Source of the DNA: an uncultured delta proteobacterium
Lineage (GTDB): Bacteria > Myxococcota_A > Polyangia > Palsa-1104
Reading direction: 5' to 3'
Assembly: GCA_963785725.1 (NCBI GenBank)
Contig: CAWAWS010000039.1
Location: forward strand, 416,001 to 480,000
Length of the DNA: 64,000 bases
The notes under the pieces were generated by a model. That model was not told the DNA's origin, ran no database searches, and worked only from the letters and a program-made list of their open reading frames with translations. Positions 42,894 through 63,837 of this stretch are shown piece after piece; the first letter of the stretch is position 1, and every line of letters begins with the position of its first letter. The position numbers and the translations under genes are program-made.

Positions 42894-43002
42894 CCGCGTA
42901 TCACGGCCGATGCGATGCGTCGAAGCCGATGCGCTGTATCACGGTCGATGCGCCGTATCACGGCCGATGCGGCGTATATCACGGCCGATGCGCCGTATCG
43001 GC
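42894..43002. repeat. About 19-bp tandem repeat GTATCACGGYCGATGCG, 4-5 copies
   Basis: Read directly; shares the GCCGTATC/GATACGGC core with the array downstream of the kinase. Confidence 0.8.
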
Positions 43003-43121: not shown

Positions 43122-46316
<3,195 letters not shown>

Positions 46317-46328
<12 letters not shown>

Positions 46329-46752
46329 CGCCGAAATTACGCCGTATCGCGGCAGGCGCCGATACAGCGTAGCGCTGGGAATACGCTGTATCGAAGCGCA
46401 ATCGTCGATACGACGTAGCGCGGAGGATACGCTGTATCGAAGCGCGGTCGCCGATACGGCGCAGCGTGGGGAACGCGCTGTATTGAACCGCGAGCGCCGA
46501 TACGGCGTAGCGTGGGGAATGAGCTGTATCGAAGCGCGAGTGCCGATACGGCGTGGTGCGGAGAATACGCCGCGCGGTCGCCGATACAGCGTAGCGCGGA
46601 GAATACGATGTATTGAAGCGCGAACGCCGATACGGCGCAGCGTGGGGAACGCTTCTGTATTGAAGCGCGGTCGCCGATACGGCGTAGCGCGGAAAATACG
46701 CCGTATCAGGCGCGGCTATCGATACACTGTAGCGTCGAAAATACGCTGTATC
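46317..46752. repeat. Tandem array of 10 hairpin units, modal period 46 bp
   Basis: GATAC starts at 46317, 46361, 46407, 46453, 46499, 46545, 46583, 46629, 46676, 46721; consensus GATACRGCGTA-N10-TACGCTGTATC. Confidence 0.9.
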
Positions 46753-46859
46753 GCGGCGGTCGATCCGAAACGTCTGCCGATCGACCGCCGGTGCCGGACC
46801 AGCGACTGCCGGCTTGCCGCAGCCGACCGTGGACTGCCGGCCGACCGCGGTGGCGCGGC

Positions 46860-46891
46860 GATACGCCGTAGCGGCCGCGCTACGGCGTATC
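46860..46891. terminator. Perfect 14-bp hairpin of the same motif family between convergent genes
   Basis: GATACGCCGTAGCG-GCCG-CGCTACGGCGTATC; no U-tract. Confidence 0.4.
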
Positions 46892-46905
46892 GCGCGCCCG
46901 CGCCG

Positions 46906-48006
46906 CTAGTCGACGCCGTCCGCGAGCCAGACGCCCCCCTCGGCGCTGCGCGTGGCGATCGTCGGACAAGGCGGCAGCAAAACCCCGTTGCAGATGCCGT
47001 TGAAGCCGAGCTCGGGATGCCGCATTTTGCCGACGCAAGTGGCTCCCGTCGGCGTCCAATAGGCCTCGACCTGCTGAATCTCGCTGTCCTCGATGTGCGA
47101 CGAATCATCGATCAAGATCTGCGTGCCCGAGATCGTGTAGTAGCTGCTGTCGCCGCAATATGACGCGCGCTTCATGTGCAGCCCGGCCGCGAAGAAGTAG
47201 TCGCTGCCGCTGGCGTAGGGATAGCCCCACCAATAGACGGTCGCGATGCCGCCGCGGCGACAGGAGAGCGTGACCGTGTCCACCGTCGTCGCGTCGCGCG
47301 TGACCGCCGCCGTCGTCGGATTGACGGCGATGCCGCGCTGGAACACGACCGGATCGAGCTTGCCGTTGGCGTCGTAGCAGTACGATTGATCGGTCGTCGC
47401 GCCCTCGACCTTCCACGTCATGTCGTACTTGCGCAGCGGCCGCACGCCCGCCTCCGTCAGCACCGAGTCGAACCCAATGACGTACATATCGAGCTTGCCC
47501 GTCGCCGGATCGGCGAAGCTCAGGTGCAGCTTCAGGTTCACCAGCGCCGCATTGCTGACGTCGATCAGCGTACCGTTGGTCTCTTGCAGCACCCAGGTCG
47601 GCACGGTGTTGGTCTCCGTCACCGACTTGACCTCGAGCCCGGTGACGCCCTGATAGTCGGCCGACCAGACGCTGCCCGGCTCCGGCAACATCAGCCACTG
47701 ATTCTGCCGGGAGTCGTAGTAGCGCGCCTGAAACGTCACCGCCGTGCCCGTGTTCTGGAAGCTGGTGATCATCGCCTGCAGCGTGTCGTCGATATAGGCG
47801 TGGCCGCCCTCGTCGGTGTAGACGCCGACGCCGTTCGACATGGTGCAGTCGGTCGTCGGATCGGGACAGCGGTACTTGATCTCCGCCGTTTCGCTGCCGG
47901 TCGTCATCGTAGGCGGCGTCGTCTCCACGCCACAGCCGCCACACAACAACAGCGCGAACAGCACGCCCCCTTTGCTTCGCTCGCTGCCTGTCATTCCCAT
48001 GTTCAT
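46906..48006 (-). CDS. ADYC-domain secreted protein or lipoprotein
   Basis: Lipobox CGGC; TLSCRRGGIA..WWGY..HMKRASYCGD...TISGT.I..EAYWTPTGATC; start may be 48006, 48000 or 47994. Confidence 0.75.
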   Translation of the reverse strand: MNMGMTGSERSKGGVLFALLLCGGCGVETTPPTMTTGSETAEIKYRCPDPTTDCTMSNGVGVYTDEGGHAYIDDTLQAMITSFQNTGTAVTFQARYYDSRQNQWLMLPEPGSVWSADYQGVTGLEVKSVTETNTVPTWVLQETNGTLIDVSNAALVNLKLHLSFADPATGKLDMYVIGFDSVLTEAGVRPLRKYDMTWKVEGATTDQSYCYDANGKLDPVVFQRGIAVNPTTAAVTRDATTVDTVTLSCRRGGIATVYWWGYPYASGSDYFFAAGLHMKRASYCGDSSYYTISGTQILIDDSSHIEDSEIQQVEAYWTPTGATCVGKMRHPELGFNGICNGVLLPPCPTIATRSAEGGVWLADGVD

Positions 48007-48174
48007 TCCCCTCCGAATTCGTGACCCGCCGTACCCCTCAGCAAAGGGCGGGCCGCTGTCGTCATGGCGGCGAGCGCCCATAAGTCCACGGCCGGCGCGG
48101 GTTTCGCAGCGGCACGTGCCTCGACACCGCGGCGATTGTGCCAGAACGTGTCAGCCGGCTACTCGCGGCGCCGC

Positions 48175-49614
48175 ATGTATAATCGCGCCAGCCTCGTGGA
48201 CCATCCGACCCTTCCCCCCAGCGAACCCGGCCAGCGCGGCGGTAATGATGACGCCGATCATGTACCCGGCCTCGTCCTCGTTTTTTGCAGCGGCGCGCCG
48301 CGCGCGGAGGTCATGCGCCTCACGTCGGGCGCGCTCGAGCTCGGGCGCGGCGAAGGCGCCGCCGGCAAGCTCGCCGACGGTCGCGTCTCGCGCCGCCACG
48401 CGCTCGTCGAGCATGACGGCGGCGGCTTTCGCGTCACCGATCTCGGCAGCCAAAACGGCACCAGCGCCGACGCGCAGCCGCTGCCACCGCACACGCCGAC
48501 GACGCTGCAACGCCTACTGCGCGTGGGCGATTCGCTGTTGATGCCGCTGCCCGACGTGCGCCCGCTCGAGCGTCATCCGCTGCGGCGCGTCGACGGCATG
48601 ATCCGCGGCGCGGCGCTGCAGCTGGTGCTCGAGGACGCGGCGCGCGCGGCACGGGCCGGCGCGACTTTGCATATTCGCGGCGAGAGCGGCAGCGGCAAGG
48701 AGGGCGTGGCGCAGGCGTTCCATCGCGCCGCCGCGCGCGACGGCGGCCAGCTCGTCGCCGTCAACTGCGCGTCGATCCCGCCCAATTTGGCCGAGCGGCT
48801 GCTGTTCGGCGCCAAGCGCGGCGCCTACTCGGGCGCCGAGAGCGACGCCGCCGGTTATGTGCAAGAGGCCGACGGCGGCACGCTCTTCCTCGACGAGGTG
48901 GCCGAGCTCGACTTGGCGGTGCAGGCGAAGCTCTTGCGCGTGCTCGAGTCGAAGGAGCTCTTGCCGCTCGGCGCTTCCAAGCCGCGTAAAGTCGACTTCC
49001 AGTTCTGCTCGGCGACGCACAAAGATCTGCGAGCGCTCGTTGCTGGTGAGCGGCTGCGCGAGGATCTGTACTTTCGCATCGGCCGGCCGGCGTTGACGCT
49101 GCCGCCGCTGCGCAATCGTCCCGAGGAGATTCCGGCGCTGGTCGCCGACGAGCTGAGTCGCGCGACGCCGCCGGCGAGCGCGCACGTGTCGCTCGTCGAG
49201 CAGTGTCTGTTGCGCGCGTGGCCGGGCAACGTGCGCGAGCTCTTGGCCGAAGTGCGGGCGGCGGCGCAGACGGCGGCGCGCGACGGTGGGCGCGTCATGG
49301 CGCAGCATCTGTCGCCGACGGCGGGCAGCGCGTTCGGCGGGACGGCGGCGATGGCGACGGCAGCCGGCGCGGCGCTCCCGGCCGGCGATCCGGCGGGCAC
49401 GCCGACGTCGACGCCGACGCCGCGCAAGCGCATGCCGCAAGTCGACGACGATTGGCGACGGCGGATCCAGGACGCGCTGCGCGTCAACGGCGGCAACATC
49501 GCGGCGACGGCGCGGGCGCTCGGCCTGCATCGCACGCAGCTGCGCCGGCTGCTCGAGCGTCATCAGATCGACGTCGCCGACAGCGGCAGCGACGACGATT
49601 CCGTCGACGACTGA
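48175..49614 (+). CDS. FHA-domain sigma-54-dependent activator (Fis HTH)
   Basis: LGRG..VSRRHA..DLGSQNGT; GESGSGKE, GAYSGA, LFLDEV, WPGNVREL; C-terminal HTH. Confidence 0.9.
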   Translation: MYNRASLVDHPTLPPSEPGQRGGNDDADHVPGLVLVFCSGAPRAEVMRLTSGALELGRGEGAAGKLADGRVSRRHALVEHDGGGFRVTDLGSQNGTSADAQPLPPHTPTTLQRLLRVGDSLLMPLPDVRPLERHPLRRVDGMIRGAALQLVLEDAARAARAGATLHIRGESGSGKEGVAQAFHRAAARDGGQLVAVNCASIPPNLAERLLFGAKRGAYSGAESDAAGYVQEADGGTLFLDEVAELDLAVQAKLLRVLESKELLPLGASKPRKVDFQFCSATHKDLRALVAGERLREDLYFRIGRPALTLPPLRNRPEEIPALVADELSRATPPASAHVSLVEQCLLRAWPGNVRELLAEVRAAAQTAARDGGRVMAQHLSPTAGSAFGGTAAMATAAGAALPAGDPAGTPTSTPTPRKRMPQVDDDWRRRIQDALRVNGGNIAATARALGLHRTQLRRLLERHQIDVADSGSDDDSVDD

Positions 49615-49723: not shown

Positions 49724-49871
49724 GATCGGCGGAGGCGTGTCTCGGCAACGCGCCAATGGTCGCGCGCACCACAGAATGCAGGCGCGACGCGACATCCGAT
49801 CGGCGGAGGCGTGTCTCGGCAACGCGCCAATGGTCGCGCGCTGCACGGAATGCAGGCGCGAGGCGACATCG
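49724..49871. repeat. 74-bp direct repeat, 2 copies
   Basis: GATCGGCGGAGGCGTGTCTCGGCAACGCGCCAATGGTCGCGCGC at 49724 and 49798. Confidence 0.9.
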
Positions 49872-49952: not shown

Positions 49953-50582
49953 CTATGGCGCGGTCGGACGCGTGAGCGGGCGTTGCATGCGGCGAAAGCC
50001 GTCGAGCCCGCGGCGACCGCGATAGGGACGCTCGCCGACGACGACGAAGCCGAGCCGTTCGTAGAGCCGCTGTGCGCGCGGGTTGCCGAACGAGACGTCG
50101 AATTCGGCGACGGTCAGCGACAGATCGGGCGTCGTGCACACATGCGCGAGGAACGCGGCGAACAGGCCTTGGCTGCGGCGATCGGCGACGACACAGGCGT
50201 TGGCGAGGAACAGGCTGTCGCGGCGCGGCGTGGCGAAGAGCGACGTCAGCGCCAACGAGCGCCACACCGCGCGCAAGAAGCGGCCGACGCCGAGCGCGCC
50301 GAAGGCCGAGCGCAGCGTGTGCAGCGACAAGCGGTTGATGTCGCGGCCGCGGTAGGCGGTCAGGGTGGCGACGAGCTGGCCGTCGGCGGCGATGGCGACG
50401 ATTTGGTGGCGATAGCCGAAGATGCCGTCGCCGCGCAGGAAGTCGCGGCGCAGGAACGGCTCGGGCCCGTCGTCGCCGAAGCGGAAGCAGGCGTCGACGA
50501 GGCCGCGCGACGACTCGTACATCAGCGGCACGACGGCGTCGGCGTCTTCGGGGCGCGCGGGGCGAAAGTGGAGCTCGGTCAT
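49953..50582 (-). CDS. GNAT N-acetyltransferase, last gene of the beta-lactone operon
   Basis: FRPARPEDA, RSQGL (motif A), NPRAQRLYERLGF; ATGA overlap with the NRPS stop. Confidence 0.9.
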   Translation of the reverse strand: MTELHFRPARPEDADAVVPLMYESSRGLVDACFRFGDDGPEPFLRRDFLRGDGIFGYRHQIVAIAADGQLVATLTAYRGRDINRLSLHTLRSAFGALGVGRFLRAVWRSLALTSLFATPRRDSLFLANACVVADRRSQGLFAAFLAHVCTTPDLSLTVAEFDVSFGNPRAQRLYERLGFVVVGERPYRGRRGLDGFRRMQRPLTRPTAP

Positions 50583-53500
50583 GTCTGGGCCTCGGCGGCG
50601 GCGGCGCGGCGGACGTCGCGGATGGCGGCGCATAGTCCGCCCAGCGTCGGGCGGCGCAAGATGGGGCGAATGTGCTGCATGAAGCGCGGCTCGAGGTCGG
50701 CGCCGACGATGCGATGGCCGATGGCGGCGAAGAGCTGGACCATTTGCAGCGAGTCGCCGCCGAGGGCGTGGAAGTCGCTGTCGGGGTGGATGGCGGCGGC
50801 GTCGACGGCGAGCAGCTCGGACCAAATGGCGGCGACGGCCGCGGTCAGCGCGTCCGCCGATGCGGCCGGCGCGCCGTTTGCGCCGTGGACGGCCGCGGTT
50901 TGCGCGTCGGCGCGCGGCGACGCGAGCTGGGGCGCGTCCGCGCCGCGCGACGCGAGCTGGGGAGCGTGCGAGGCGAGCGGCGCGAGCTGGGGCGCGTTCG
51001 GCGAGAGTGGGGGCGCGTTCGCGGCGAGCGGCGCGACGATGTTCGCGGCGGGCGTGGCGAGGGTCGCGTCGCCGTCAGATGACGTCGGTGCGGTCGCCGC
51101 GCGCTGCATGTGGTCGGCGGGATTCGGCAGCCGCCGTAAGTCGGCCTTGCCGTTGACGGTCAGCGCAATCTCGTCGACCGCGAAGATGAACGACGGGATC
51201 ATGAACGCCGGCAGCTGACGCTCGAGCGCCCGTCGCAGCGCCGCCTCATCGACGACCGCGTGGCGCCGGGTTTCGTCCGCGCCCGTCGGCTGCGCGCCGG
51301 CGAGCGAGGTCTGCGCGGCGGTTTCGTCGATCACTGCGGGCCGACGAGATGCGTTGGCTGGCGTTGCCTGCGCGTCGGCGAGCGAGGTTCGCGAGGCGGC
51401 TTCGTCGCCGCTCGCTGCGCTTCGCGCGCGTTCGCCATCGATCGCGCTCGGCACGTAATACGCGCACAAGATCGGATCGCCGCCGGCGCCGCCCGCTCGC
51501 GCGCGACCGACGACCAGCGCCTGCGCCACGCCCGGCTGCGCCGCGATCACCGCCTCGATTTCGCCCGGCTCGATGCGATGGCCGCGAATCTTCACCTGCT
51601 CGTCGGCGCGGCCGAGGAACTCGAGCAGGCCGCGACCGTTCAGCCGTGCCAGGTCGCCGGTTCGATAGGCGCGGCGACCGTCAAGTAGCTTGACGAATCG
51701 TTCGCGATTCAGATCCGGACGGTCCAGATAGCCGCGCGCCAGACAGTCGCCGGCCAAGTACAGCTCGCCGCTGGCGCCGCGTGCGACTGGGCGGCGGTCG
51801 GCGTCGAGGAGGTGGGCTTGCATGTTGCGGCCGGGGACGCCGATGGGCACGGCCGCCAAGTCGCCGTCGCGCGCGGCGTCGAAGACGTGGCAGACGCAGC
51901 CGATGGTGGCCTCGGTGGGGCCGTATTCGTTGACGATGCGGCAGTCGGCGCCGAAGCGCGCTTGCGCTTTGCGTGCGAGCGTCATCGTAAGCTGCTCGCC
52001 GCCGACGATGAGCGTGCGAAAGCCGCGCGGCGCCGCTCCCTCGAGCTGCGTGATGAGCTGAAGGTGCGTCGGCGTCAGCTTGAGCGCGTTGGCGCCGCTG
52101 TCGTGCAGGATCGTGCGCAGCGTCAGATGATCGAGCGCCTCGGGCACGAGCGCGATGCTGCCGCCGGCCAGCAGCGGCGGGAAGATCGCCGTCGCCGTGA
52201 GGTCGAACGCGAGCGACGTGAAGAGCGCGAAGCGGCTGCCGGCGTCGATGCCGTAGGCCGCTTGGGCCCAGCCGACGTAGTTGACGAGGCTGCGATGCTC
52301 GATCTGCACGCCCTTCGGCTGCCCGGTCGACCCCGAAGTGTACAAAATGTAAGCAAGCGATCGAGGATCCTCGTCGATCGGCGTGAAGACACGATGTCTT
52401 TCCGTCGGCCTGAAAGCGCTGGGTTCGTTCGTCGGCGGCACGGCGCCGTGCGTGTCGACCGCCGCGACCGCGCTGTGCCCGTCGGTCGGTGCGACGGCGC
52501 TGTGCCCGTCGGTCGGTGCGACGGCGCTGTGCCCGTCGGTCGGCACGACGGCGCTGTATCTGTCGCGCGGCGCAACCGCGCTGTGTCCATCGAGCTGCCC
52601 AACGGAGCCGTGTTCGTCGAGCGGCGCAATGGCACTGTGTTCGTCGAGCGGTGCAACGGCACTGTGTTCGTCGGTCGGCGGAACCGGGCCGTGTCTGTCG
52701 ACCGCGACAACGGCGACGCGCGTGTCGGTCGGCGCAACGGTGGCGTGTGCTTCAGTCGGCACAAGGGCGCTGCGGTCTGCGGTCGACATCGCCGCGTCGT
52801 CGCCGAGCTCGTGGGCGAGCGCGAGGGCGCCGGTGAAGACGCCGTCGAGCCGCGCGGCGTGGGCGCGCGTCGTCAGGCAGAGCGCGGCGCGGGCGTCGGT
52901 CAGCAGCCAGCCGAGCCGCTCGGCGGGATATTGCGGATCGAGCGGCAGATAAGCGGCTCCAGCTTTGATGATGCCGAACATCATTACGATCGCTTGCGGA
53001 TCGCGGTCGACGAGCAGGCCGACGACTGCGCCGGCGCCGACGCCGCGGGCTCGCAGTGCGGCGGCCACGGCGTCCGAGCGTCGCGCCAGCGCAGCGTAGG
53101 TCACGGTCTCGTCGCCGCACACGAGCGCGACGGCGTCTGGCGTGCGCGCCGCCTGGTCGGCGAACAGGCCGGCGACCGTGCGCGCCGGAATCGGCGCCGC
53201 CGTGTCGTTGGCCGCCCACTCATCCAGGGACGGTCGAGAGCCGTCGTCATCATTAGTGGCGTCGGCCGGCGCTGGGGTCGTAGCCGGGCGTTCTTTGGCA
53301 GCGGCGCTCGGATGCTGTAGCCGGTCTGGCGCGCGGAGGTCTTCGCCGTCCAGCGTTCCAATGTCATTCCGCTCGGGCGCCGACACCGCGTCGAGACGCG
53401 GTTGAACGCTAACGTTGCGCGAGGGCGAGTTCGTGCCGTTGGCTATGGCTTCGCTGCGCGAGGGCGGGTTCGTGCCGTTGGCGACGCCGTCGCTGCGCGA

Positions 53501-54826
53501 GGGCGAGTTCGTGCCGTCGGTGACGGCTTCGCTGCGCGAGGGCGGGTTCGTGCCGTCGGCGACGCCTTCGCTGCGCGAGGGCGAGTTCGTGCCGTTGGCG
53601 ACGCCTTCGCTGCGCGACGGCGGGTTCGCGTCGCCGGTGACGGCTTCGCTGCTCGGCTGCTCGACGGCGGTGACGATGCGGTCGAGCAGCGCGTCGGCCG
53701 CGGCCGCGACCTCGGCGGGACAGACCAGCGTCAGCTCGACTCGATCGCGACACTCGATGGCGACGAGCGACAACGCCGCCAGCGGCACATGCACCGGCAG
53801 CGAATAGATCGTCGTCGCGCGGAAATCGCCACCGGACAGCGCCCGCGGATCGACGCGCCCGAGGTGCGACAGGATGGCCGTCGCCGCGAAATGTCCACGC
53901 CGGCGCAGACGCAACGACGCTTTGATGATGCTCGTCATCATCCAGATCGGCATCTTCGCCAGCGCGCCTTCCGAACCATCGACGGCGAGCTCGCGCTTCT
54001 CCGCCAACGCCGACAACAGCTGCTCGTAGAGGCCTTCCCAGGGTTCGTTCGGCTGCGCGTCGAGGAAGATGGGCAGGCTCAAGTTGCTCGTCGCGGACAG
54101 CGCCGGCGCATGACGGCGCAGATCGACGGGCACCATGAAGCGCAAACGCGTGCCGGGCGCGGCGTTGGCGGCCAACGTCGCCGCCAGCTTGGCGACGAGG
54201 CCGGGCTGCGCGCCGGCGAGCGTGCGCCGCTTCCAGACGAACGCGTCCGCTGCGTCTTGCGCGTTCGCCGCCGTCGTGGCGAGCGGCGACGGGCAGTCGA
54301 ACGTCGGTCGCGTCCGGCGATGGCGGGCGCCGAGCTGCGTCAAGAGCGCGACGTCGGTCATCGTCGCGGCGGCGGCGCGCAGCGGCTCACCGCGATAGGC
54401 GCGCCAGATCTCGTGGGCCCATATGAGCGCGCCCTTGCCGTCCATGACGCCGTGGAACGCGCGAATGATGACGGTCGTACGCATTGGGCGGCGGACGACG
54501 ACGACTTCGCAGGTCGGGCCGGCCTGCACGTCGAGCGACTGACGCCAGCGCGGCGACTCTTCGTCGGGCCGTTCGTCGCCGTCGACGACCGTGACCGGCG
54601 GCGCGACACCGCTCTCGACCCACTGCTTGCCGTCGAGGACGAGGCGCGCGCCCGGGCAGGCGGCCGCAGCTTCGGCGACGGCGCGCGTGAGCCGCGCCAA
54701 ATCGACGTCGCCCTCGCCGTCGATGAAGAGCTGAATCGCGAACGGCCCGGCGATGCGCGCGCCGGCCAAGTACAGCCGTTCGTTGGGCGAAACGTCGCGC
54801 CGAAATGTTGGAGTCGCCGTCATCAT
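50579..54826 (-). CDS. Monomodular NRPS C-A-T (LstE-like), predicted Asn-activating
   Basis: C: FHGVMDG. A: YTSGSTGQPKGV, FDLT, GGE, NEYGPTE, YRTGDL, QVKIRGHRIE, NGKAD. T: GGDSL. No TE. Confidence 0.9.
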   Translation of the reverse strand: MMTATPTFRRDVSPNERLYLAGARIAGPFAIQLFIDGEGDVDLARLTRAVAEAAAACPGARLVLDGKQWVESGVAPPVTVVDGDERPDEESPRWRQSLDVQAGPTCEVVVVRRPMRTTVIIRAFHGVMDGKGALIWAHEIWRAYRGEPLRAAAATMTDVALLTQLGARHRRTRPTFDCPSPLATTAANAQDAADAFVWKRRTLAGAQPGLVAKLAATLAANAAPGTRLRFMVPVDLRRHAPALSATSNLSLPIFLDAQPNEPWEGLYEQLLSALAEKRELAVDGSEGALAKMPIWMMTSIIKASLRLRRRGHFAATAILSHLGRVDPRALSGGDFRATTIYSLPVHVPLAALSLVAIECRDRVELTLVCPAEVAAAADALLDRIVTAVEQPSSEAVTGDANPPSRSEGVANGTNSPSRSEGVADGTNPPSRSEAVTDGTNSPSRSDGVANGTNPPSRSEAIANGTNSPSRNVSVQPRLDAVSAPERNDIGTLDGEDLRAPDRLQHPSAAAKERPATTPAPADATNDDDGSRPSLDEWAANDTAAPIPARTVAGLFADQAARTPDAVALVCGDETVTYAALARRSDAVAAALRARGVGAGAVVGLLVDRDPQAIVMMFGIIKAGAAYLPLDPQYPAERLGWLLTDARAALCLTTRAHAARLDGVFTGALALAHELGDDAAMSTADRSALVPTEAHATVAPTDTRVAVVAVDRHGPVPPTDEHSAVAPLDEHSAIAPLDEHGSVGQLDGHSAVAPRDRYSAVVPTDGHSAVAPTDGHSAVAPTDGHSAVAAVDTHGAVPPTNEPSAFRPTERHRVFTPIDEDPRSLAYILYTSGSTGQPKGVQIEHRSLVNYVGWAQAAYGIDAGSRFALFTSLAFDLTATAIFPPLLAGGSIALVPEALDHLTLRTILHDSGANALKLTPTHLQLITQLEGAAPRGFRTLIVGGEQLTMTLARKAQARFGADCRIVNEYGPTEATIGCVCHVFDAARDGDLAAVPIGVPGRNMQAHLLDADRRPVARGASGELYLAGDCLARGYLDRPDLNRERFVKLLDGRRAYRTGDLARLNGRGLLEFLGRADEQVKIRGHRIEPGEIEAVIAAQPGVAQALVVGRARAGGAGGDPILCAYYVPSAIDGERARSAASGDEAASRTSLADAQATPANASRRPAVIDETAAQTSLAGAQPTGADETRRHAVVDEAALRRALERQLPAFMIPSFIFAVDEIALTVNGKADLRRLPNPADHMQRAATAPTSSDGDATLATPAANIVAPLAANAPPLSPNAPQLAPLASHAPQLASRGADAPQLASPRADAQTAAVHGANGAPAASADALTAAVAAIWSELLAVDAAAIHPDSDFHALGGDSLQMVQLFAAIGHRIVGADLEPRFMQHIRPILRRPTLGGLCAAIRDVRRAAAAEAQT
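52400..52760 (-). repeat. In-frame 27-bp repeats (HSAVAPTDG-like) inside the NRPS A domain
   Basis: About 10 degenerate copies visible in the translation. Confidence 0.85.
53416..53652 (-). repeat. In-frame 39-bp repeats (SEGVANGTNSPSR-like, 6 copies) in the NRPS C-A linker
   Basis: Visible in DNA and translation. Confidence 0.9.
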
Positions 54827-55169
54827 TAGGCCTGCCGGCTGCCGCAATGACGGCGATCGCGCGTCAGCCCAGGACGGCGTCGCAGCGCGCGCGGTGAAGT
54901 GTGGGGCGAGCTTGGCGTCGTGTGCGTGATGGGCGCCGCTGGTTGGGAAAAGGCGTCGTGCCGAAATGTTGGAGTCGCCGTCATCATTAGGCCTGCCGAC
55001 TGCCGCAATGACGCCGATCGAGCATCAGCCGAGAACGGCGTCGCAGCGCGCGCGGTGAAGCGTGCGGCGAGCTCGGCGTCGGGCACGTCGTCATTTGACG
55101 ACCGCCTGAATCGGCCGCGAAATCGCCGTGCGGCAGTTCGGGCGAGCGTGGCGTCGGGCACGTCGTCAT
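54826..55169 (-). other. Two duplication-derived mini-ORFs (54987-55169, 60 aa; 54826-54987, 53 aa) bridging lstD-like and lstE-like genes
   Basis: ATGA, TAATG and TAATG overlaps; both end in DRRHCGSRQA; the second starts with the NRPS N-terminus MMTATPTFR. Confidence 0.6.
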
Positions 55170-56225
55170 TTGACGAACCGCGTGAATTCGTCGAGGCCGC
55201 CGATTTCGTCGACCCAGTCGCGCAATCGGCGTAGGCCGGTCGGCTGATCGATCGTCGGGCGAAATCCGAAGTCGCGGCGCGCGGCGGTCGTGTCGTACGT
55301 CGCCGTCAGCGTCAGGAGGCCGAGCGCGTAGCGCGACAGCGGCGGGGAGCGGCGATCGCCGAGGCCGGGCAGCTGCCACAAGACGTCGATGGCGCGGGCC
55401 AGCGCGCGCGCCATCGGCAACGGTATGCGCCGGCGCACGCGCGGCAGCTCGAACAGCTCGGCGAGCACGTTCGCGAACGGCCAGACGTCGGTCGGCTCGG
55501 CGTCGCACACGAAGTAGGCCTTGCCGCCGACCGCCGGCGAGCGCGCCGCCTGCAGGCATGCGGCGGCGGCGTGGTCGACGTAACAGAGGCTCGCCTTGAA
55601 CGCGCTTGCCGCCCGAGAGGTCGGGCAGTCGACCGGCGGCCAGCTTGGCGACGATCTTCGGCAGGAAGCCGGTGCGATCGCGCGGTCCCCAGATGCCGCG
55701 CGGCCGAATGGCGCAGGTGACGAAGCCGCGGCCGTTGGCGCCGAGGACGAGCTGCTCGGCCAGCGCCTTGGTCTCCGAGTACAAGTTCACGAAGCGAGGC
55801 GGATAAGGATAGCGCTCATCAATGGCCACCTGATCGCGATCGTCGGCGACGACGCTGGGGCTGCTGACGAACACGAAGCGGCTGACGCCGTTGCGGCGCG
55901 CGGCGTCGACGAGGGCGCGCGTGCCGGCGACGTTGGCGTCCCAGAATTGACGGCGCGTGCCGAAGTCGCTGACGCGCGCGGCCGAGTGGTAGACGACGTC
56001 GACGCCGCGCGTGGCGGCGGCGAGCGACTTGGGCTCGGTGACGTCGCCGGGGACGAGCTCGACGGCGCCTCGGTCGCTGGCGGTAACGGCGGCCGAGCGC
56101 GCGCGCAAATGAGCCGTGTCGCTCGTCGGCCGAACGAGCGCGCGCACGTCGTCACCGGCGGCGAGGCAGTGGTCGACGAGGTGGCCGCCCAAGAAGCCGG
56201 AGGCGCCGGTGACGAGGACCTTCAC
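55166..56225 (-). CDS. 3-beta-HSD-type NAD(P)-dependent reductase (OleD/LstD-like), apparent +1 frameshift near 55599
   Basis: VLVTGASGFLG, VSSPSV, YSETK, RPRGIWGPRD; removing one base gives KRVKASLCYVDHAA..GKAYFVCD..ARRDFGF. Confidence 0.85.
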
Positions 56226-56587
56226 GTGCTCGGTCCCACGGGAAAGCGAGGCCGGACGAGGCGGCCGCCCAAGAAGTCGGCCGAACTGGCTGTGACTGCT
56301 CTCCGCTTGCACGGCCGTAAGGCAAAACCAGGCGTGACGAGCACGGCGCCCGAGCAATGCGCGGTGCCGGCCGCGCTCGCCGTTCCGCGGCGCGGCGGCG
56401 CGGCGAAGCCAGGCGGGACGAGCACGCCGCGCCCGAAATCCACCGCGTTGCGCGGCGGCGCGGCGAAGCTAGGCGCGACGAGCACGCCGCGCCCGAAATC
56501 CAACGCGCGGCGCGGCGGCACGGCGAAGCCAGGCGCGAGGAGCACGCCGCGCCCGAAATCCACCGCGCCGCCGATCAACGCCTTCAC
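56222..56587 (-). other. Repeat-derived 121-aa spacer ORF (about 60-bp units) between lstC-like and lstD-like genes
   Basis: GTGA overlaps at both ends; 60-bp unit GGCGAAGCYAGGCG..GAGCACGCCGCGCCCGAAATCCA three times. Confidence 0.55.
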
Positions 56588-58821
56588 GTGCGCGGCCCCG
56601 CTCCGGCGTCGAGGAACTTCCACCACGTCGCGCCATACAAGAACGTGTAAGCCACCGTTTGCGTCCGCGAGTAGCCGGCGCGCCGACCGCGCGGCAACGC
56701 CGTGAACAGCTGCAGCCCATGCACGACGACGCTCAGGAACACGTCGATCGCCCACAGCACCCGCAACAGCGACGGCAGCGGCACGACGAGGCCAATGATG
56801 ATGAACAACCAACCCGCGAGCGGAATCAGCTTGAGCGCGTGCGGCGGCGGCGCCAGCTGACGCGCGGCCCATTCGGCCAGCTGCCCGCGGTCGATCTTGG
56901 CGTTGTGGCGAATGTCGACGGGAAAGCCGCGATGAAACAGGAACGCGCGCGCGCCGCGCGTCAACGGATTCGCGGCCGCCAGCGCGATGAGCTGCCGCTC
57001 GATGGCCGGCCGGTTCCGCCACTGGTCGCGCTGCAGCTCGACGCACACCACCGGCTGTTGCGCGCCGATCGGCCCGACACCGACGAGCGCGCTGCGATAG
57101 ACGGCCGGATGCGCGTCGAAAATGCCCTCCCATTGCGCCGTGTACTGCGGTCCGCGCACCGTGTGCACCGTCTGGCTCTTGCGCCCGGCGAACCAGACGC
57201 GTCCGTCGCCGTCGACGCGGCCGAGGTCGCCCGTGCGATGCCAGCTGCGCGCGCCGTCTTCGATCTTCATGAGCGCGTTCGACTCGGGCGACTCGTGATA
57301 GCGGCGACTGACGAGCGGCCCGGCGATCGTCAGCTCGCCCACCTCGCCCGGCGCCGCCAGCAGCGCGTTGGACCAGCGCGTGATCGGGTCGTCGCTCGTG
57401 CGAATGACGCGCAGCTGCAGCGACGGCAGCGGCCGGCCGACGCAGCTGCCGTGGCCAGCCGCGCTGCGCGCCGAGAGCGAGCCCGCATGCTCGCCGTTCT
57501 TGGGAGATGATGCGTCTGCGAGCGTGGCATTTCCCGACCGAAGCGCGCCGTCCCGCGCGGGTCGGCCGGCGGCGCCATCGCCTGCGGCCGCAGCGACCGC
57601 GGCGGCAGCGCCGGTCACCGCATCGCCCGCGGCCGCGTCGCCGGTCGCCGCCGCGCCGGTCGCCGCCGCGCCGGTCACGGCATCGCCCGCGGCCGCGTCG
57701 CCGGTCGCCGCCGCGCCGGTCACGGCATCGCCCGCGGCCGCGCCGGTCGCCGCCGCGCCAGTCGCCGCGTCGCCGGCCGCCGTATCGCCGAACAGCTCGT
57801 CGGCGGCGATCGACGCGATCGGCAGCGCCTCGGTCGCGCCATACGTCACGTGCAGCCGCGCGTCCGCCGCCATTAGCCCGACGAACCGCCGCGCGATCGA
57901 CGGCAACACCGGCGCGCCGCCCGCAATCACCCGCCGCAGCGAAGGCAACTTATGATGATGCTCGACCGCATAGTCGCCCACCCGCCGCAAGAACGCGGGC
58001 GACGCGAACATATGCGTGACCTCGTGCTGCGCGATCGTCGCGATCATCGCCGCCGCGTCCGCCAGCGCCGGCCGGTTGGGATCGATCGGCGGCAAGATCG
58101 TCGTCGCGCCGATCAGCAAATGAAAGGCCGTGAACAGCGGCAGCGGCGCCAGCGCGACATCATCCGGCCCGTGCGCGAACTCGTGCTCGATGCTGCCGAT
58201 CATGGCGTCGGCGATGCCATGCGTGTACTCGACGCCTTTGGCCGGCCCGGTGGCGCCGGTCGTGAAGTTGATCATCAAGAGATCGTCGGCGCGCGTCTCG
58301 GCGATCGGAAACGGCCCGCTCGGCGCCGTGAAAGCGGCCGGCGGCGGCAGCGTGGCGCCGGTCCAGCCGAGCTTGCGCCCGACGGTGACCCAGCTCCGTA
58401 ACGACTCGAACGAGCGCGGAAACAGCACGCGCACGACGTGCGCCGCCGGAATGCCGACGAGCGCGTCGGCCCCGACGGTGCGATAGGCGTGCAGCATGCG
58501 TCCGAGGCCCATGCCCGGGTCGACGACGACCGGTACGGCGCCTACCTTGAACAGCGCGAACAGCACCGTGAACAGCTCGGGGCTTGGCTTGACCATGAGC
58601 AGCGTCTTCGTACCGCGCCCGATCCTGGCCGCGACCAGCGCGTGCGCCCAGCGGTCCGACTCCTCGTCGAGCTCGCGGAACGTCTTCGACGCATAATGAT
58701 GACGTGCGTCAGCATTGAAGTAGAGCGCGCGCTTGTCCGGCCAGCGCCGCGCGTTTTCCCGCAGCCGCGTGGCGACGTTCAACGGCGAGGCGTGCGGCGT
58801 CTGTGGCGCGAGCGTAGCCAA
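56584..58821 (-). CDS. Beta-lactone synthetase (OleC/LstC-like adenylate-forming enzyme) with C-terminal membrane segment
   Basis: VVDPGMG, FTTGATGPAKGV, YGATEALPI, WHRTGDLG, WFAGRKSQ, FPVDIRHNAKI; TTG start. Confidence 0.9.
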   Translation of the reverse strand: MATLAPQTPHASPLNVATRLRENARRWPDKRALYFNADARHHYASKTFRELDEESDRWAHALVAARIGRGTKTLLMVKPSPELFTVLFALFKVGAVPVVVDPGMGLGRMLHAYRTVGADALVGIPAAHVVRVLFPRSFESLRSWVTVGRKLGWTGATLPPPAAFTAPSGPFPIAETRADDLLMINFTTGATGPAKGVEYTHGIADAMIGSIEHEFAHGPDDVALAPLPLFTAFHLLIGATTILPPIDPNRPALADAAAMIATIAQHEVTHMFASPAFLRRVGDYAVEHHHKLPSLRRVIAGGAPVLPSIARRFVGLMAADARLHVTYGATEALPIASIAADELFGDTAAGDAATGAAATGAAAGDAVTGAAATGDAAAGDAVTGAAATGAAATGDAAAGDAVTGAAAAVAAAAGDGAAGRPARDGALRSGNATLADASSPKNGEHAGSLSARSAAGHGSCVGRPLPSLQLRVIRTSDDPITRWSNALLAAPGEVGELTIAGPLVSRRYHESPESNALMKIEDGARSWHRTGDLGRVDGDGRVWFAGRKSQTVHTVRGPQYTAQWEGIFDAHPAVYRSALVGVGPIGAQQPVVCVELQRDQWRNRPAIERQLIALAAANPLTRGARAFLFHRGFPVDIRHNAKIDRGQLAEWAARQLAPPPHALKLIPLAGWLFIIIGLVVPLPSLLRVLWAIDVFLSVVVHGLQLFTALPRGRRAGYSRTQTVAYTFLYGATWWKFLDAGAGPRT
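57575..57785 (-). repeat. In-frame Gly/Ala/Thr/Asp 15-bp repeat insertion in the OleC/LstC-like gene
   Basis: GDAAT/GAAAT/GDAVT run in the translation. Confidence 0.85.
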
Positions 58822-58826
58822 TGATG

Positions 58827-59711
58827 TTAGCGACGATAGATTGTGCAGGCGGTGGTCAGGCCGGCGCCGGCGGATACGAACAAGACCTGCTCGAAGCGCG
58901 CCGTCTGACCGCTCTTGCCGCCCTCATGAAAGCCGAGCGTCAGCGCCGACGTGTGCGGGTCGCCGCCGACGTCGACGCGTACCGTCGCCGCGTCGTCCAC
59001 TTTGAGCTGCGCGGCCAAGGCGGCGCCGAAGCGCGGCGTCACCTGCGACGTCACCAGCAGCGTCTTGCCGAGGTCGATGCGCTCGGCGACGACGTATTCG
59101 TGCACGGCGTCGCGCGCCAGCTCGATGAGCCGCTCGGCGTACCCGTCGTCGGTGTGCACGCTGATTCGCTCGCGTCCGTTCGGCCCGTCCTCGACGAGCA
59201 CGCCCTGCCGGCCGACGAAGCCGTCGTTGGAGTCGCGCACTTGCAGCCGGCCGAAGCCGCGCCCGTCGTCGGCGTCGTGCTGCAGCAGCATCGCCGCGCC
59301 CATCGTCGCGTAGGGAAAGCCGGGCACGTTCGTGCGCCCCGACGGATGCGCGTCGCTCGACACGATCAAGATCGACTGCCCGCGATCGACCGCCAAGAAC
59401 GCGCTCGCCACCTGAATCGCATTCAAGATGCCGCAGCCGCCGTTCATGAGGTCGAGCGACAACGCCGCCTTCTTCGTCGGAAACTTCACGTAATCGAGGT
59501 TGAGCCCGATCTCCTTGGCGACGAGCGCCGCCATCGCCGGCTCGACCATGTTGGCGTCGCGATAGACGCCGACGTTGATGAGCATGTCGATCTCTTCGAT
59601 GGCGACTCCCGCGTTCGCGAGGCAGTCCTTGGCGGCGAGGGCCGCGTGTGCGATGGAGCTGCCGATCCGGCCGTCGGTGGAGACGCCGGTCGCTTTGATG
59701 ATGGCGCCCAT
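58827..59711 (-). CDS. FabH/OleA-like subunit lacking the canonical triad (LstB-like)
   Basis: MVEPAMA retained; NGGCG, TSQV and GDPHTS replace NACxG, HQ and GNT. Confidence 0.8.
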   Translation of the reverse strand: MGAIIKATGVSTDGRIGSSIAHAALAAKDCLANAGVAIEEIDMLINVGVYRDANMVEPAMAALVAKEIGLNLDYVKFPTKKAALSLDLMNGGCGILNAIQVASAFLAVDRGQSILIVSSDAHPSGRTNVPGFPYATMGAAMLLQHDADDGRGFGRLQVRDSNDGFVGRQGVLVEDGPNGRERISVHTDDGYAERLIELARDAVHEYVVAERIDLGKTLLVTSQVTPRFGAALAAQLKVDDAATVRVDVGGDPHTSALTLGFHEGGKSGQTARFEQVLFVSAGAGLTTACTIYRR

Positions 59712-59713
59712 CG

Positions 59714-60766
59714 TTAGGCCGCCTCGAGCGAGCTGATCGTCGCCGCCAAGCAGCCGGTCACGACGCCCGACGCCGCGGGCACGAGCAGAAACTTTGCGCC
59801 GCGCTTCACCTTCTTCTCCTGCAGATGCTGATAGAGCACGATGAAATGCGAGGTCGTCGCCGTGTTGCCGAGCTGCTCGACCGATACCAGCGACTGCGGC
59901 ATCTCGGTTCCGAAGATCGTGCTCGCGTGGCGCGAAAACTTGCGAATCGCCTTCGTCCCCACTTGGTGGTGCACGATATAATCGTATTTCTCCGCCGCGA
60001 ACGTCGTCCCGCGCTTGGCCAGGAAATCCATATGGAAGCGCGGCCACAGCTGAATGCGCTCTTCTTTATGCATTTCGGCGTTATTCGTATACAGCGCTGG
60101 TCCCGAATGCTCGATGCTCGGCATTCCGATACAAAGCTTCGAATATTCGGCGCAGGTCATGAGCTCGATATAATGAATCTTGTCGGCGTCGTTCTCCGCG
60201 CGATCGAGAATGACGGCCGCGCCCGAATCGCCGACGGTGAGCGAGCCGAACTGCGAGTCGAACGGCTCCTTGATCTCCTGGACGGCGGTATCGGCGATCG
60301 GCGTGATGCATTCGCCGGAGACGACCATTCCGTTACGAACGATGCCGGCGCGAATCATGCGATCGAGCAGGTGAACGCCGGTCATCATTCCCGCGCAGGC
60401 ATTGGAGACGTCGAAATGAATGGCCGAATGCGCGCCCAAACCGCGCTTCAAATGCAGCGCGAATGACGGCTCGAAATGCATCGCATAACTGCCGCCTTTA
60501 TATCGAGTAATCGACGCCGAGATAATGACGTCGAGATCGCGCGCGCGATAACGCGAGCGCTTCAAGCAGTCGCGCGCCGCCAACATCGCCAGCGCGAACG
60601 AGTCTTCGAACGACTCCGCCCGTTTGTCGTGCACGCGCCGCGTCTCGATGCCCGTGATCTCCTGCAGGTCGAACAGCGGCTCGAATTGCATCTGGCTGAT
60701 CAAGTCGCGCGTCGACACCTTCGTCGACGGCAAGTAGGCACCCAAAGCTTCGAACCGCGTATCCAT
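59714..60766 (-). CDS. FabH/OleA-like Claisen-condensing enzyme (LstA-like)
   Basis: FDVSNACAG, SLTVGDSGAA, HHQVG, LGNTATTSH; SD GGAGG. Confidence 0.9.
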   Translation of the reverse strand: MDTRFEALGAYLPSTKVSTRDLISQMQFEPLFDLQEITGIETRRVHDKRAESFEDSFALAMLAARDCLKRSRYRARDLDVIISASITRYKGGSYAMHFEPSFALHLKRGLGAHSAIHFDVSNACAGMMTGVHLLDRMIRAGIVRNGMVVSGECITPIADTAVQEIKEPFDSQFGSLTVGDSGAAVILDRAENDADKIHYIELMTCAEYSKLCIGMPSIEHSGPALYTNNAEMHKEERIQLWPRFHMDFLAKRGTTFAAEKYDYIVHHQVGTKAIRKFSRHASTIFGTEMPQSLVSVEQLGNTATTSHFIVLYQHLQEKKVKRGAKFLLVPAASGVVTGCLAATISSLEAA

Positions 60767-61753
60767 CCGTCCTCCGTTGAAGGCGCCCGCTTGTGCAAGC
60801 AAGGTGCCCTCGTGTTTCAGCGCCAAAGCCAGGCGGATGGCGGCTTCCAGAAATCGACCCTGGAGACTGCAGCCCCGCTTCTAAGTCCCCGTGGGGACAG
60901 CTGTACTCGGCGTGCGCTGTATAGGACGCAGTGGCCCTTACAACGTCGCCCTGGCCGCGTCTCGTCGTCGCGTCGAGCTTTCGACCCCGCCGTTACGCGC
61001 TACATCTCCATACCCCAAATCGATGCCGCGGTGAGTCAAAATGTTTCGGTCGGCGCGAATTAAATGATTCGCCGCGCGCATTCCACGCGGATGTCGGATA
61101 GTTGCGCTCGCCCGAGAAAATACGAAGAAAAAGCCGCTCGTGAGGCATCTACGTGACGAGAAGACGAGCGTGGCGCAAATCGGAAACATGGCAATCGAGG
61201 CTGCTCGGCGAATGCGAAATGTGAGCGGAGACGGCGACCGCGGCCGCGAAGCCATCGCGAACGACGCGGCGCTGTGCCTATATGGACGCGAGGCCGCGCG
61301 AGCTTGGGCTGCAGACGAAACATTCGGCGTGCATTTTCGCCGCGCGAAAACGGCGATCTCGGCAATCGCTACGGCCGCCACGGTCGTACCGTTGGTATGA
61401 CGCGCGCTGACGTGGTGTTGCGAGCGACACCGGCGCGAAATCGGCGCGAACGCGGTGCGCGCTCGACGCCGCGAAACCCGCGCGACGCCAGCGCGCGAGC
61501 GCGCCGCTTCGTCGACGGGCGCGGCGCGAATTTGGCCCGACCATTTCGCCCTCGACAGCGGGCGCTACGTTCGCTATCAAGCGTCGCGGCCAGGACCTCG
61601 CGCGGCGCGGCCCCAGCCTCGGCGCGATGCGTCATGGCACCAACGAGAAGTGCTCTTTAGTATCGCCGCTTTCGTAGGGTATAAGGAGCGCGTTGGTGGG
61701 CGGCGGGCAGGACGGGTCGCTCACATTTCACGAATCTGGACGGTGCTGCTTTG

Positions 61754-62773
61754 ATGAATAACGCGCATAAGATCGACTCCGCTCCGCTCGCGCCCGAGCT
61801 CTGCCTGCGCATGCATGACTTGATGGTGCGCGCCCGCGTTCTCGAAGAGCGGCTCGTCTCCATGTATCGCCAAGGCGATGGTTACTTTTGGATCGGCGGC
61901 CCCGGCGAAGAGGCGTTCAACGTGCCGCTCGGCCTGCTGGTGAAAAAGGGGCAGGGCGTGCAGTACGATTATCTGCACCTGCACTATCGCTCGTCGGCGA
62001 CGCTGCTGGCGATGGGCGCCGACCCCGTCGATTCCTTGCGGCAAATGAAGAACACCGCGACCGATCCTTATTCGCGCGGGCGTAATTTCGCCGGCCATTA
62101 CTCGGTCAATAAATGGAATATCCCGCCCGTTTCCTCGCCGATCGAAGTGCAATATTCGATCGCGCCCGGAACGGCGTTGGCGCAAAAGCGCGCCGGCGGC
62201 GACGGCATCACCATCGTCACCGGCGGCGACGCCGGCACCGCCGAAGGCGACTTCGCGACCTGCCTCGTATGGAGCTCGCGCCGCGGCCACGAATTACCGT
62301 TACTCATTCTCGTCACCAACAATCGCTGGGGTATTTCGACGAGCTGGGATGGCCAGCACGGCGAAGAGCGCATCTCCGATCGCGGCAAAGCGTTCGGCAT
62401 GCCGACGCGCACCATCGACGGCAACGATCCCGAAGTCAGCTATCGCGCGCTGCAAGAGGCGATGGATTACGTGCGCCGCGAGCGGAAGCCCTATTTGCTC
62501 GAGGCGAACGTGTCGCGGCTTTACGGGCATTCGTCGGCGTCGGGCGCGAACTTCGTGCAGAGCGAGAACGACTGCTTGGCGCGCTTCGAGTCGACGCTGG
62601 AGGAGCGCAAGCTGATTACGCGCGCGCAAGCCGACGAGACGCGGGCGCAATACACGCAAGAGCTGTTGAAGGCGCATAAGCGCATTCGCGACGAAGCGCA
62701 GCCGTCGGGCGACGATATCTTCAAGCACGTCTTTGCCGACGCGCCCGCGTTCGACGATCAGGAGGTCGGCTGA
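61754..62773 (+). CDS. TPP-dependent 2-oxoacid dehydrogenase E1 alpha, probably branched-chain
   Basis: LHYRS, GGDAGTAEGDF..NNRWGIS TPP motif, RLYGHSSAS. Confidence 0.9.
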   Translation: MNNAHKIDSAPLAPELCLRMHDLMVRARVLEERLVSMYRQGDGYFWIGGPGEEAFNVPLGLLVKKGQGVQYDYLHLHYRSSATLLAMGADPVDSLRQMKNTATDPYSRGRNFAGHYSVNKWNIPPVSSPIEVQYSIAPGTALAQKRAGGDGITIVTGGDAGTAEGDFATCLVWSSRRGHELPLLILVTNNRWGISTSWDGQHGEERISDRGKAFGMPTRTIDGNDPEVSYRALQEAMDYVRRERKPYLLEANVSRLYGHSSASGANFVQSENDCLARFESTLEERKLITRAQADETRAQYTQELLKAHKRIRDEAQPSGDDIFKHVFADAPAFDDQEVG

Positions 62774-63837
62774 TGTCGACGATGGTGCAGGCGATTCGCA
62801 TGGCGCTGCATGTCGGCGAAGAGCGCCTCGGCGTCACCGACATCTTCGGCGAGGACGTCGGACCGCCGCTCGGCGGCGCCTTTACGCAGACGCAGGGCCT
62901 GAAGACGTCGTGGAATTCGCCGCTCGACGAGCGCGGCATCGTCGGCGCGGCCATCGGGCTCGCGCTCGCGGGTCAGCGTCCCGTCGCCGAGATTCAGTTC
63001 TGCGACTATGCGTTCAACGCGATCGATCTATTGAAGCTGGCGGGCAACATTCGCTGGTCGTCGGCGGGCGATTGGGAAGTGCCGATGGTGCTGATGACGC
63101 CCGTCGGCGCCGGTATTCGCGGCAGTATTTATCATTCGCACTCGTTCGACGCGCAGGCGACGCGTCTGGCCGGCTGGAAAGTGGTCATGCCGTCCAATCC
63201 GCGCGACGCCTACGGCCTCATGTTGTCGGCGATTCGCGATCCGAACCCGGTCATGTATTTGATGCCCAAGGCGCTGCTGCGGGTCAAAGGCGGCGAGGGT
63301 CAGGACGTTCCCGGCGAGCCGGCGAATCCGCGCGAGCTGTCGAAGATGATCGACGCGCCGCTCGGCGAAGGGCGCAGCGATTGGTCGCCCAATTGGCCGG
63401 CGCTCGAAGAGCTGTTCGTGCCCATCGGCAAGGCGCGCGTCGCGCGCGCCGGTCGCGACGTCACGCTGATTACCTACGGTCGCAACGTGCATATGGCGCT
63501 GGCGTCGGCCGAGGAGTTGGCGGCCGAAGGCATCGACGTCGAGATCATCGATTTGCGCTCGCTGCATCCTTACGATTGGCCGGCGATCGTCGAGAGCGTC
63601 ACCAAGACGAACCGCGTCATGTGCGTCAATGAGGACACCGAGATCACCAACTTCGGTGAGCACTTGATTCGCCGCATCGTCGAGGAGCTGTTCTACCAGC
63701 TGCACGCGCCGCCGAAGCTGTTGGCGGGCGCGCACGTTCCGGGCGTCGGGCTCGCCGACAACCTCGAGCACGCCAGCGTGCCGCAGACCGGCCGCATCAC
63801 GGCCGCGCTCCGCGAGCTCGCCAAGCACGTGCCTTAA
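62773..63837 (+). CDS. 2-oxoacid dehydrogenase E1 beta
   Basis: FGEDVG, PLDERGI, VAEIQFCDY, YHSHS, IDLRSLHPYD; TGATG overlap with E1 alpha. Confidence 0.9.
   Translation: MSTMVQAIRMALHVGEERLGVTDIFGEDVGPPLGGAFTQTQGLKTSWNSPLDERGIVGAAIGLALAGQRPVAEIQFCDYAFNAIDLLKLAGNIRWSSAGDWEVPMVLMTPVGAGIRGSIYHSHSFDAQATRLAGWKVVMPSNPRDAYGLMLSAIRDPNPVMYLMPKALLRVKGGEGQDVPGEPANPRELSKMIDAPLGEGRSDWSPNWPALEELFVPIGKARVARAGRDVTLITYGRNVHMALASAEELAAEGIDVEIIDLRSLHPYDWPAIVESVTKTNRVMCVNEDTEITNFGEHLIRRIVEELFYQLHAPPKLLAGAHVPGVGLADNLEHASVPQTGRITAALRELAKHVP

Follow-up and report, generated by a model that had tools for sequence, protein, structure and literature searches.

A six-gene operon in the genome of an uncultured delta proteobacterium (GTDB Bacteria; Myxococcota_A; Polyangia; Palsa-1104; assembly GCA_963785725.1, here G000) is, judged from its sequence, probably a lipstatin-type operon making an esterastin-like product, a dialkyl beta-lactone esterified with N-acetyl-asparagine. 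Lipstatin is the source of the anti-obesity drug orlistat. The operon lies within the window analysed here, a stretch of 64,000 nucleotides (contig CAWAWS010000039.1, positions 416,001-480,000, forward strand), in which positions 49953-60766 hold six open reading frames, all on the minus strand and transcribed in the order A-B-C-D-E-F. A preliminary description, made from the DNA letters alone, had recognised in these genes the order of the lipstatin operon lstABCDE, and this order was borne out. The features are, in window coordinates and with the evidence in brackets:

59714..60766, minus strand: A, lstA/NltA-type KAS III subunit with triad C124-H267-N301 (triad spacing, identity to Streptomyces globosus)
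58827..59711, minus strand: B, lstB/NltB-type KAS III partner without the triad, with Glu57 (alignment, identity to S. globosus)
56584..58821, minus strand: C, lstC/NltC-type beta-lactone synthetase of the ANL family, with a repeat insert and a hydrophobic C-terminal extension (PRK09274, tree)
56226..56583, no strand: C-D gap of 358 bp, with diverged repeats of 60-81 bp and a decayed copy of the lstD start (repeat analysis)
55166..56225, minus strand: D, lstD/NltD-type ketoreductase of the extended SDR type, its frame broken by a single additional base (homologue matches, motifs)
54827..55165, no strand: D-E gap of about 340 bp (135-bp duplication of the lstE start, 90% identical, and 36-bp duplication of the lstD end)
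50579..54826, minus strand: E, lstE-type non-ribosomal peptide synthetase (NRPS) with condensation, adenylation and carrier domains (C-A-T), without thioesterase (TE), carrier Ser in GGDSL (Pfam, fold, A-domain code)
49953..50582, minus strand: F, GNAT acetyltransferase at the position of the lipstatin formyltransferase (homology to neighbours of lstE homologues)

As a proxy for the lipstatin operon lstABCDEF of Streptomyces toxytricini we used a plasmid operon of S. globosus LZH-48 (NZ_CP030864.1, locus L250), which runs A-B-C-D-NRPS-formyltransferase and carries C128, H271, N305 and E60, the published LstA and LstB numbers; its status as a proxy rests on these identical residue numbers and on the layout. 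The window operon has the same layout and orthologous proteins, with identities of 57% for A, 37% for B, 45-47% for C, 59% for the 5' part of D and 37-51% for the domains of E. Common to both are the gene order, the LstA triad spacing, the LstB glutamate, a C-A-T NRPS without TE and the lack of oleB, whereas the window differs in its Asn-like code (DIFALGGVAK in the proxy), a GNAT in place of the formyltransferase, its myxobacterial host, a frameshifted D and larger repeat inserts. Because it departs from lipstatin in two features, the predicted amino acid (not Leu) and the missing formyltransferase, the operon is apparently an uncharacterised variant of the lipstatin pathway. The six genes are co-oriented, as first described, and tightly linked at A-B (2 bp), B-C (5 bp) and E-F (4 bp overlap), but the tight linkage does not extend to C-D (358 bp) and D-E (about 340 bp), both filled with diverged junction duplications. 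Promoter and terminator scans gave chance-level results only.

Predicted enzymes for the beta-lactone core

The intact Cys-His-Asn triad noticed earlier in the first FabH/OleA-like protein was found at C124, H267 and N301 of A, and its spacing (143 and 34 residues) equals that of LstA C128/H271/N305 (PMC12141560). A stays below the cut-off of the NCBIfam models for PRK09258 and FabH. The second FabH-like protein, B, indeed lacks the triad and has E57 instead, a residue invariant in 40 of 40 aligned sequences and corresponding to NltB E57 and to E60 of LstB (PMC12141560). An LstA-type triad protein and an adjoining triad-less LstB with its glutamate are thus both present, and by analogy with LstAB and NltAB the two would act as an LstAB-type heterodimer. 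According to the review cited, LstAB pairs are widespread (PMC12141560). Two distant pairs were seen in other settings: at L223 (5670-11038, G127:C31) an LstAB-like pair is divergent from oleB-oleC-oleD, a layout suggesting that a two-subunit condensing enzyme can also feed olefin synthesis, and at L270 (4632-8713, G462:C5) an LstAB pair is preceded by two ATPase-like open reading frames.

C carries the motif FPVDIRHNAKI, and matching to NCBIfam PRK09274 gave 581.6 bits (cut-off 478), while both OleC equivalogs (NF045785/6) remained below cut-off. The earlier assignment of an OleC-type adenylate-forming enzyme by this motif therefore stands as to its presence but is not diagnostic, as FPVDIRHNAKI or close variants are common to LstC and OleC and have no power to separate them. 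A tree of 49 C proteins placed the window protein with lst-type enzymes and split it from 16 oleB-adjacent OleC proteins (SH-aLRT, an approximate likelihood ratio test, 100), so that it stands apart from the olefin enzymes with which it might have grouped; the OleC side also holds three distant rows linked to lstAB. The C-terminus (56584-56880) is prolonged by a hydrophobic stretch of about 90 aa, with a GATWW-type motif at its end. Such an extension was seen in 63 of 123 C proteins, is missing from every oleB-adjacent one, and is possibly a membrane anchor marking the lst branch. In D the SDR motifs GASGFLG, S and YSETK were found, in line with the predicted OleD-type reductase.

No OleB was found at the locus. 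Since no OleB-specific NCBIfam model was among the top matches of 40 of the 64 alpha/beta hydrolases, a profile was built from 24 oleC-adjacent OleB-like proteins, their label resting on oleC adjacency and haloalkane-dehalogenase similarity. Its best match in the G000 genome, which is 88% complete, scored 152 bits, compared with leave-one-out scores of 423-501 bits, consistent with the claimed absence of the decarboxylase. It is very improbable that the genes make membrane olefins through an OleB acting in trans, next to an unrelated NRPS and GNAT. OleC-family genes do occur in 117 of 301 genomes of the phylum, the G127 genome holds its LstAB-like pair beside oleB-C-D, and the incompleteness of G000 leaves room for a missed gene; however, no match in G000 reaches the OleB level, C groups with the lst-type enzymes, and in nearly all of the 57 related loci holding a complete NRPS gene, described below, E comes after D. 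The window shares with oleABCD a homologous condensing enzyme, reductase and beta-lactone synthetase, and differs from it by the missing OleB, the two-subunit condensing enzyme, the separate clade of C and the added NRPS and GNAT. A parallel in these functions is nltABCD of Nocardia brasiliensis (nocardiolactone), described with a heterodimeric NltAB having Glu57 in B, a reductase and a beta-lactone synthetase and without OleB (bioRxiv 10.1101/856955), all of which have counterparts here, the heterodimer as a predicted one; in contrast to that four-gene set, E and F follow D and add an NRPS and an acyltransferase.

From the biochemistry of NltABCD (bioRxiv 10.1101/856955) and of LstAB, a route to the core can be proposed for the lipstatin-type operon. 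The A-B heterodimer would join two fatty acyl-CoAs head to head, with Cys-His-Asn supplied by A and Glu57 by B. The beta-keto acid would be reduced by D with NADPH, which needs an intact frame, and C, acting as NltC and OleC do, would activate the beta-hydroxy acid by adenylation and form the beta-lactone ring.

The NRPS, its predicted amino acid and the acetyltransferase

The C-A-T architecture without TE given in the preliminary description was recovered in E, the A and T domains by Pfam and the N-terminal domain by its predicted condensation fold. Its N-terminal 390 residues match no Pfam family, and searching NCBIfam and PDB by sequence likewise failed to recognise them (a weak WS/DGAT match in 3 of 24; CDA C1 with E 0.03). 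The predicted structure of this part (pLDDT, the model's own confidence score, 89.5) matched NRPS condensation domains in Foldseek (best E 6e-20, TM 0.67), and the motif H125xxMD129G was located, with H125 and D129 invariant in 24 sequences. The genome has two phosphopantetheinyl transferases; close paralogues of A, B, C, the condensation domain or F were not found in G000.

The A-domain code of E, DLTKIGEIGK, is Asn-like (positions set by motif, via LgrA alignment and GrsA numbering), and Glu at position 322 presumably favours Asn over Asp. Nine of ten positions are identical to DLTKIGEVGK, a code given under Asp/Asn in PMC12283262; according to the same source, codes for Asp and for Asn overlap, and DLTKIGEVGK is also compatible with beta-cyano-Ala. 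The A domain is therefore predicted to select Asn and, by the same kind of prediction, not the Leu of lipstatin, for which the proxy has DIFALGGVAK.

F is weak as a GNAT when taken alone (Pfam E 0.002-0.01). Its full-length matches, at 46-59% identity, are proteins encoded next to lstE homologues; six of these proteins score as GNATs with E 1e-10 to 1e-15, and by this homology the sixth gene is the GNAT it had been called. It takes the place of the LstF formyltransferase and overlaps lstE by 4 bp. Related loci were found by LstB alignment, and comprise the best 80 of 408 GTDB-genome loci (63 actinomycetes, 17 others) and 72 metagenomic loci; a search with the single A protein as query found nothing. 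Among the 152 loci, 57 have a full C-A-T gene, to which the following counts refer, and at least eight A-domain code types are found in them. The Asn-like DLTK code occurs in 20 of the 57, 14 with this GNAT family, one with a formyltransferase and five with neither; the other 37 have this GNAT family in no case, a formyltransferase in 36 and neither in one. Unrelated GNATs near L075 and L250 were left out of the counts. This GNAT and the formyltransferase never occur together beside lstE, and the counts show mutual exclusion at one position, not repeated co-evolution. Ten of the 14 Asn-code loci with the GNAT belong to named actinomycete genomes (three of Krasilnikovia, S. inhibens, two of S. 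kronopolitis, S. sioyaensis, Streptomyces sp., Actinoplanes with a partial GNAT, and one metagenome-assembled genome, MAG), the remaining four being three metagenomic contigs and one Pseudomonadota MAG. The nearest relative in the C and E trees is the pair of metagenome contigs L089/L088, with the order E-GNAT-A-B-C-D. At L004 (13865-16096, a Dactylosporangium MAG) a condensation-domain match is followed within 500 bp by a partial GNAT and then a transposase-like open reading frame, which suggests deletion of the A and T domains.

By the layout and the structure of lipstatin, the A domain of E would load Asn onto its own carrier domain, and the GNAT, from its position and co-occurrence, would N-acetylate it as LstF formylates Leu. 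The condensation-fold domain, with the observed fold and His/Asp, may then transfer the residue to the side-chain hydroxyl of the lipid as an ester, as in lipstatin, and so release the product without a TE. This product would inhibit serine lipases and esterases. The earlier guess of an N-acetylated amino acid ester is thus supported by the position and co-occurrence of the GNAT and by an Asn-like code found independently; product and activity are what we infer from these.

An unlikely alternative keeps the same lipid beta-lactone core and changes its decoration, be it Asp, beta-cyano-Ala or free Asn, a GNAT acting on the finished product or in self-protection, or an amide in place of the ester. 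It draws on the overlap of Asp and Asn codes and the fit to beta-cyano-Ala (PMC12283262), on the five Asn-code loci without acyltransferase and the one with a formyltransferase, and on L066, where the GNAT lies upstream on the opposite strand. Against it, the GNAT overlaps lstE by 4 bp exactly at the position of the S. globosus formyltransferase, and the two enzymes exclude each other throughout the 57 loci.

Counter-evidence, integrity of the operon and its host

Several points weigh against an operon producing the N-acetyl-asparaginyl ester. F has RSQGLF as its acetyl-CoA motif and scores under the Pfam cut-offs, although a similar motif is present in L089. Six of the 20 Asn-code loci are without this GNAT, and the association of code and GNAT comes from only one to three independent pairs, too few for a test, and may therefore reflect shared ancestry. 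The top fold match of the N-terminal domain of E is AzeD, a dehydrating condensation-fold enzyme, and the fold alone therefore leaves the chemistry of E unfixed. Esterastin is taken to be a lipstatin-like beta-lactone with N-acetyl-Asn, but among the openly accessible papers none stating this was found; nor was an esterastin gene cluster for sequence comparison. The lstD gene is frameshifted as assembled, by one extra base near 55595-55600, and lstC and lstE carry repeat inserts of 100-135 aa unseen in most homologues. Finally, the support comes from sequence and predicted structure.

The frameshift and the inserts raise the question of decay, with a real lstD frameshift, repeat expansion under relaxed selection and no product, which we regard as rather improbable. 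Besides the extra base it could be argued from the repeat inserts in C (102 aa in frame, 57472-57777) and in E, which exceeds the median homologue by about 400 aa, and from the duplicated junctions. The D motifs are present with the frame broken by one extra base only, and seven homologues match lstD in two abutting frames, with 4 bases for one residue. With congener proteins as queries, nine frameshift-like rows (eight distinct sites, some of which may be real or lie in the query) were counted in 155 matched G000 genes (55,405 aa), and about 0.5 such sites would therefore be expected from this background in an operon of this size. Two contigs of run X1 from related strains, with 7 and 15 substitutions, cover 55488-55692, and both lack one letter relative to the window, the place of the missing letter not being displayed. 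All inserts in C and E keep the reading frame, low-complexity inserts occur in similar loops of C and E from S. globosus, and all catalytic motifs are intact. P0238, a close LstE relative (68-81% identical, same code type), is without the large A-domain inserts and has its own in the condensation domain. Long terminal branches were not seen. From these comparisons, an assembly error is likelier than decay as the source of the extra base.

The Myxococcota-like host proposed earlier is supported by a taxonomy check of the contig. MYXO-CTERM was matched 20 times in the G000 genome, once on the contig of the operon, and not at all in 14 control genomes. Among the 120 matches listed for the Tgt gene 9 kb off, three carry NCBI names, from Myxococcales (84% and 75%) and Polyangia (75%), and the DNA at 30,000-49,900 matches all four congeners searched with 70-84% identity. 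GC content at third codon positions (GC3) is 0.80-0.92 in the six genes, within the range of the genome (mean 0.83, sd 0.10), and gave no hint that the operon was transferred recently. In an independent JGI assembly P0238 and a 91%-identical Tgt (P0118) each lie on a contig of 38,200 bp, presumably the same one, which suggests the same lst-Tgt linkage. By these sequence features the host is a member of the Myxococcota and chimerism of the contig is unlikely. That actinobacterial DNA was misjoined into a myxobacterial bin is hardly credible: 63 of the best 80 named loci (of 408) are actinomycetes and lstB is absent from 40 relatives of the host, but the operon lies inside a 788-kb contig with a MYXO-CTERM protein and congener-like DNA within 20 kb, its GC3 is ordinary, the trees described below exclude it from the actinomycete clade, and the JGI contigs repeat the linkage. 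The host is unusual, but the preliminary description overstated the surprise, as the same layout occurs in the ten named actinomycete genomes among the 80 loci retained, and lstABCD(E) sets in several groups outside the actinomycetes.

Around the operon, intergenic gaps of the window are often filled by diverged tandem repeats (39830-40093, 42898-42999, 46307-46753, 49724-49870), the same habit as in the expansion of the operon junctions and protein loops. At the 3' border (43122-49614) are a Ser/Thr kinase with tetratricopeptide repeats, an ADYC-domain protein and an FHA/sigma-54 activator, unlinked to the operon so far as shown. Genes for 2-oxoacid dehydrogenase E1 alpha and beta (61751-63837, plus strand) are divergent from lstA, and no match to them at E 1e-50 turned up when four congeners and a further genome of the family were searched; as they adjoin none of 155 related loci, they were placed outside the system. 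The long open reading frame after them resembles prolyl oligopeptidase, not E2.

Distribution, history and meaning

Sets of lstABCD(E) were also found in Gammaproteobacteria, other Myxococcota and Desulfobacterota, among them ABCDE with another code in Algicola sagamiensis, and lst-type operons are on Streptomyces and Rhodococcus plasmids (14 records); the F GNAT had no match among plasmids. In the 40 host relatives no LstB orthologue was found, with two weak matches only (E 3e-4 and 1e-3). Of 400 other genomes in the phylum, 4 have LstB, and of 400 in the class, 7 have the condensation domain; these searches score only 4-5 candidates per genome. Around six of these seven, ABCD accompanies a free condensation domain in one genome, a complete NRPS with the Asn code belongs to another cassette in a second, and the other four have free domains only; the six-gene set was in none of the six. 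In another genome of the class, L263 (2117-9360, G462:C13) holds a full LstE-like C-A-T gene with the code DLTKVGEVGK, which precedes genes for an adenylating enzyme, a KAS III and an SDR that belong to a different cassette.

An A+B tree of 53 rows has an actinomycete clade (100/99) that leaves the window out; the window shares an open fork with rows from Sandaracinaceae, Myxococcales and metagenomes, and the proteobacterial rows are the next to branch off. Joining the window to the nearest actinomycete subclade, a group picked after the tree was viewed, was rejected (approximately unbiased test, p-AU 0.001). The same test did not reject a tree in which the non-actinomycete rows form a single clade (p-AU 0.435), and nesting of the actinomycetes inside a non-actinomycete grade is therefore not established. 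The A+T tree, with long outgroup branches, likewise has an actinomycete clade (98/99) excluding the window and L089; the window, L089, L066 and several branches of actinomycetes combine the Asn code with the GNAT, and 12 of 14 formyl rows form one clade (96/99). As the window stands outside the actinomycete clade, the operon appears not to be a recent gift from the sampled actinomycetes. An older Asn/acetyl state fits these trees, which are not proof of it. A wider proposal, possible and on the whole doubtful, is that the form with Asn-code NRPS and GNAT is the missing esterastin pathway and ancestral, with a non-actinomycete origin in Myxococcota or proteobacteria, that formyl-Leu lipstatin is a later actinomycete variant, and that this genome is the first myxobacterium with a complete set.

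Esterastin is a compound of Streptomyces lavendulae MD4-C1 (PMC7449042), and passages of PMC7449042, PMC10616362 and PMC2886142 mention it solely as a compound or within a reference. An esterastin gene cluster, an lst variant with Asn code and GNAT, or a myxobacterial lst operon was not found in the openly accessible literature searched, and a prior description is possible. Surprise is moderate because the core chemistry is known and LstAB pairs have already been called widespread (PMC12141560).

Lipstatin-class beta-lactones are drug leads, as orlistat illustrates, and the swappable amino-acid and acyl-cap modules, with at least eight code types in 57 loci, are useful for analogues. If the proposed pathway is correct, a long-known inhibitor, esterastin, would be tied to genes, cultured carriers for testing would be named (S. 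inhibens NEAU-D10, S. kronopolitis, S. sioyaensis DSM 40032, Krasilnikovia), and a class of lipase inhibitors would be added to myxobacterial chemistry. On the same condition, the family may not have begun in Streptomyces. The host is unusual and not unique; the main value of the operon is a testable gene set for esterastin-type compounds.

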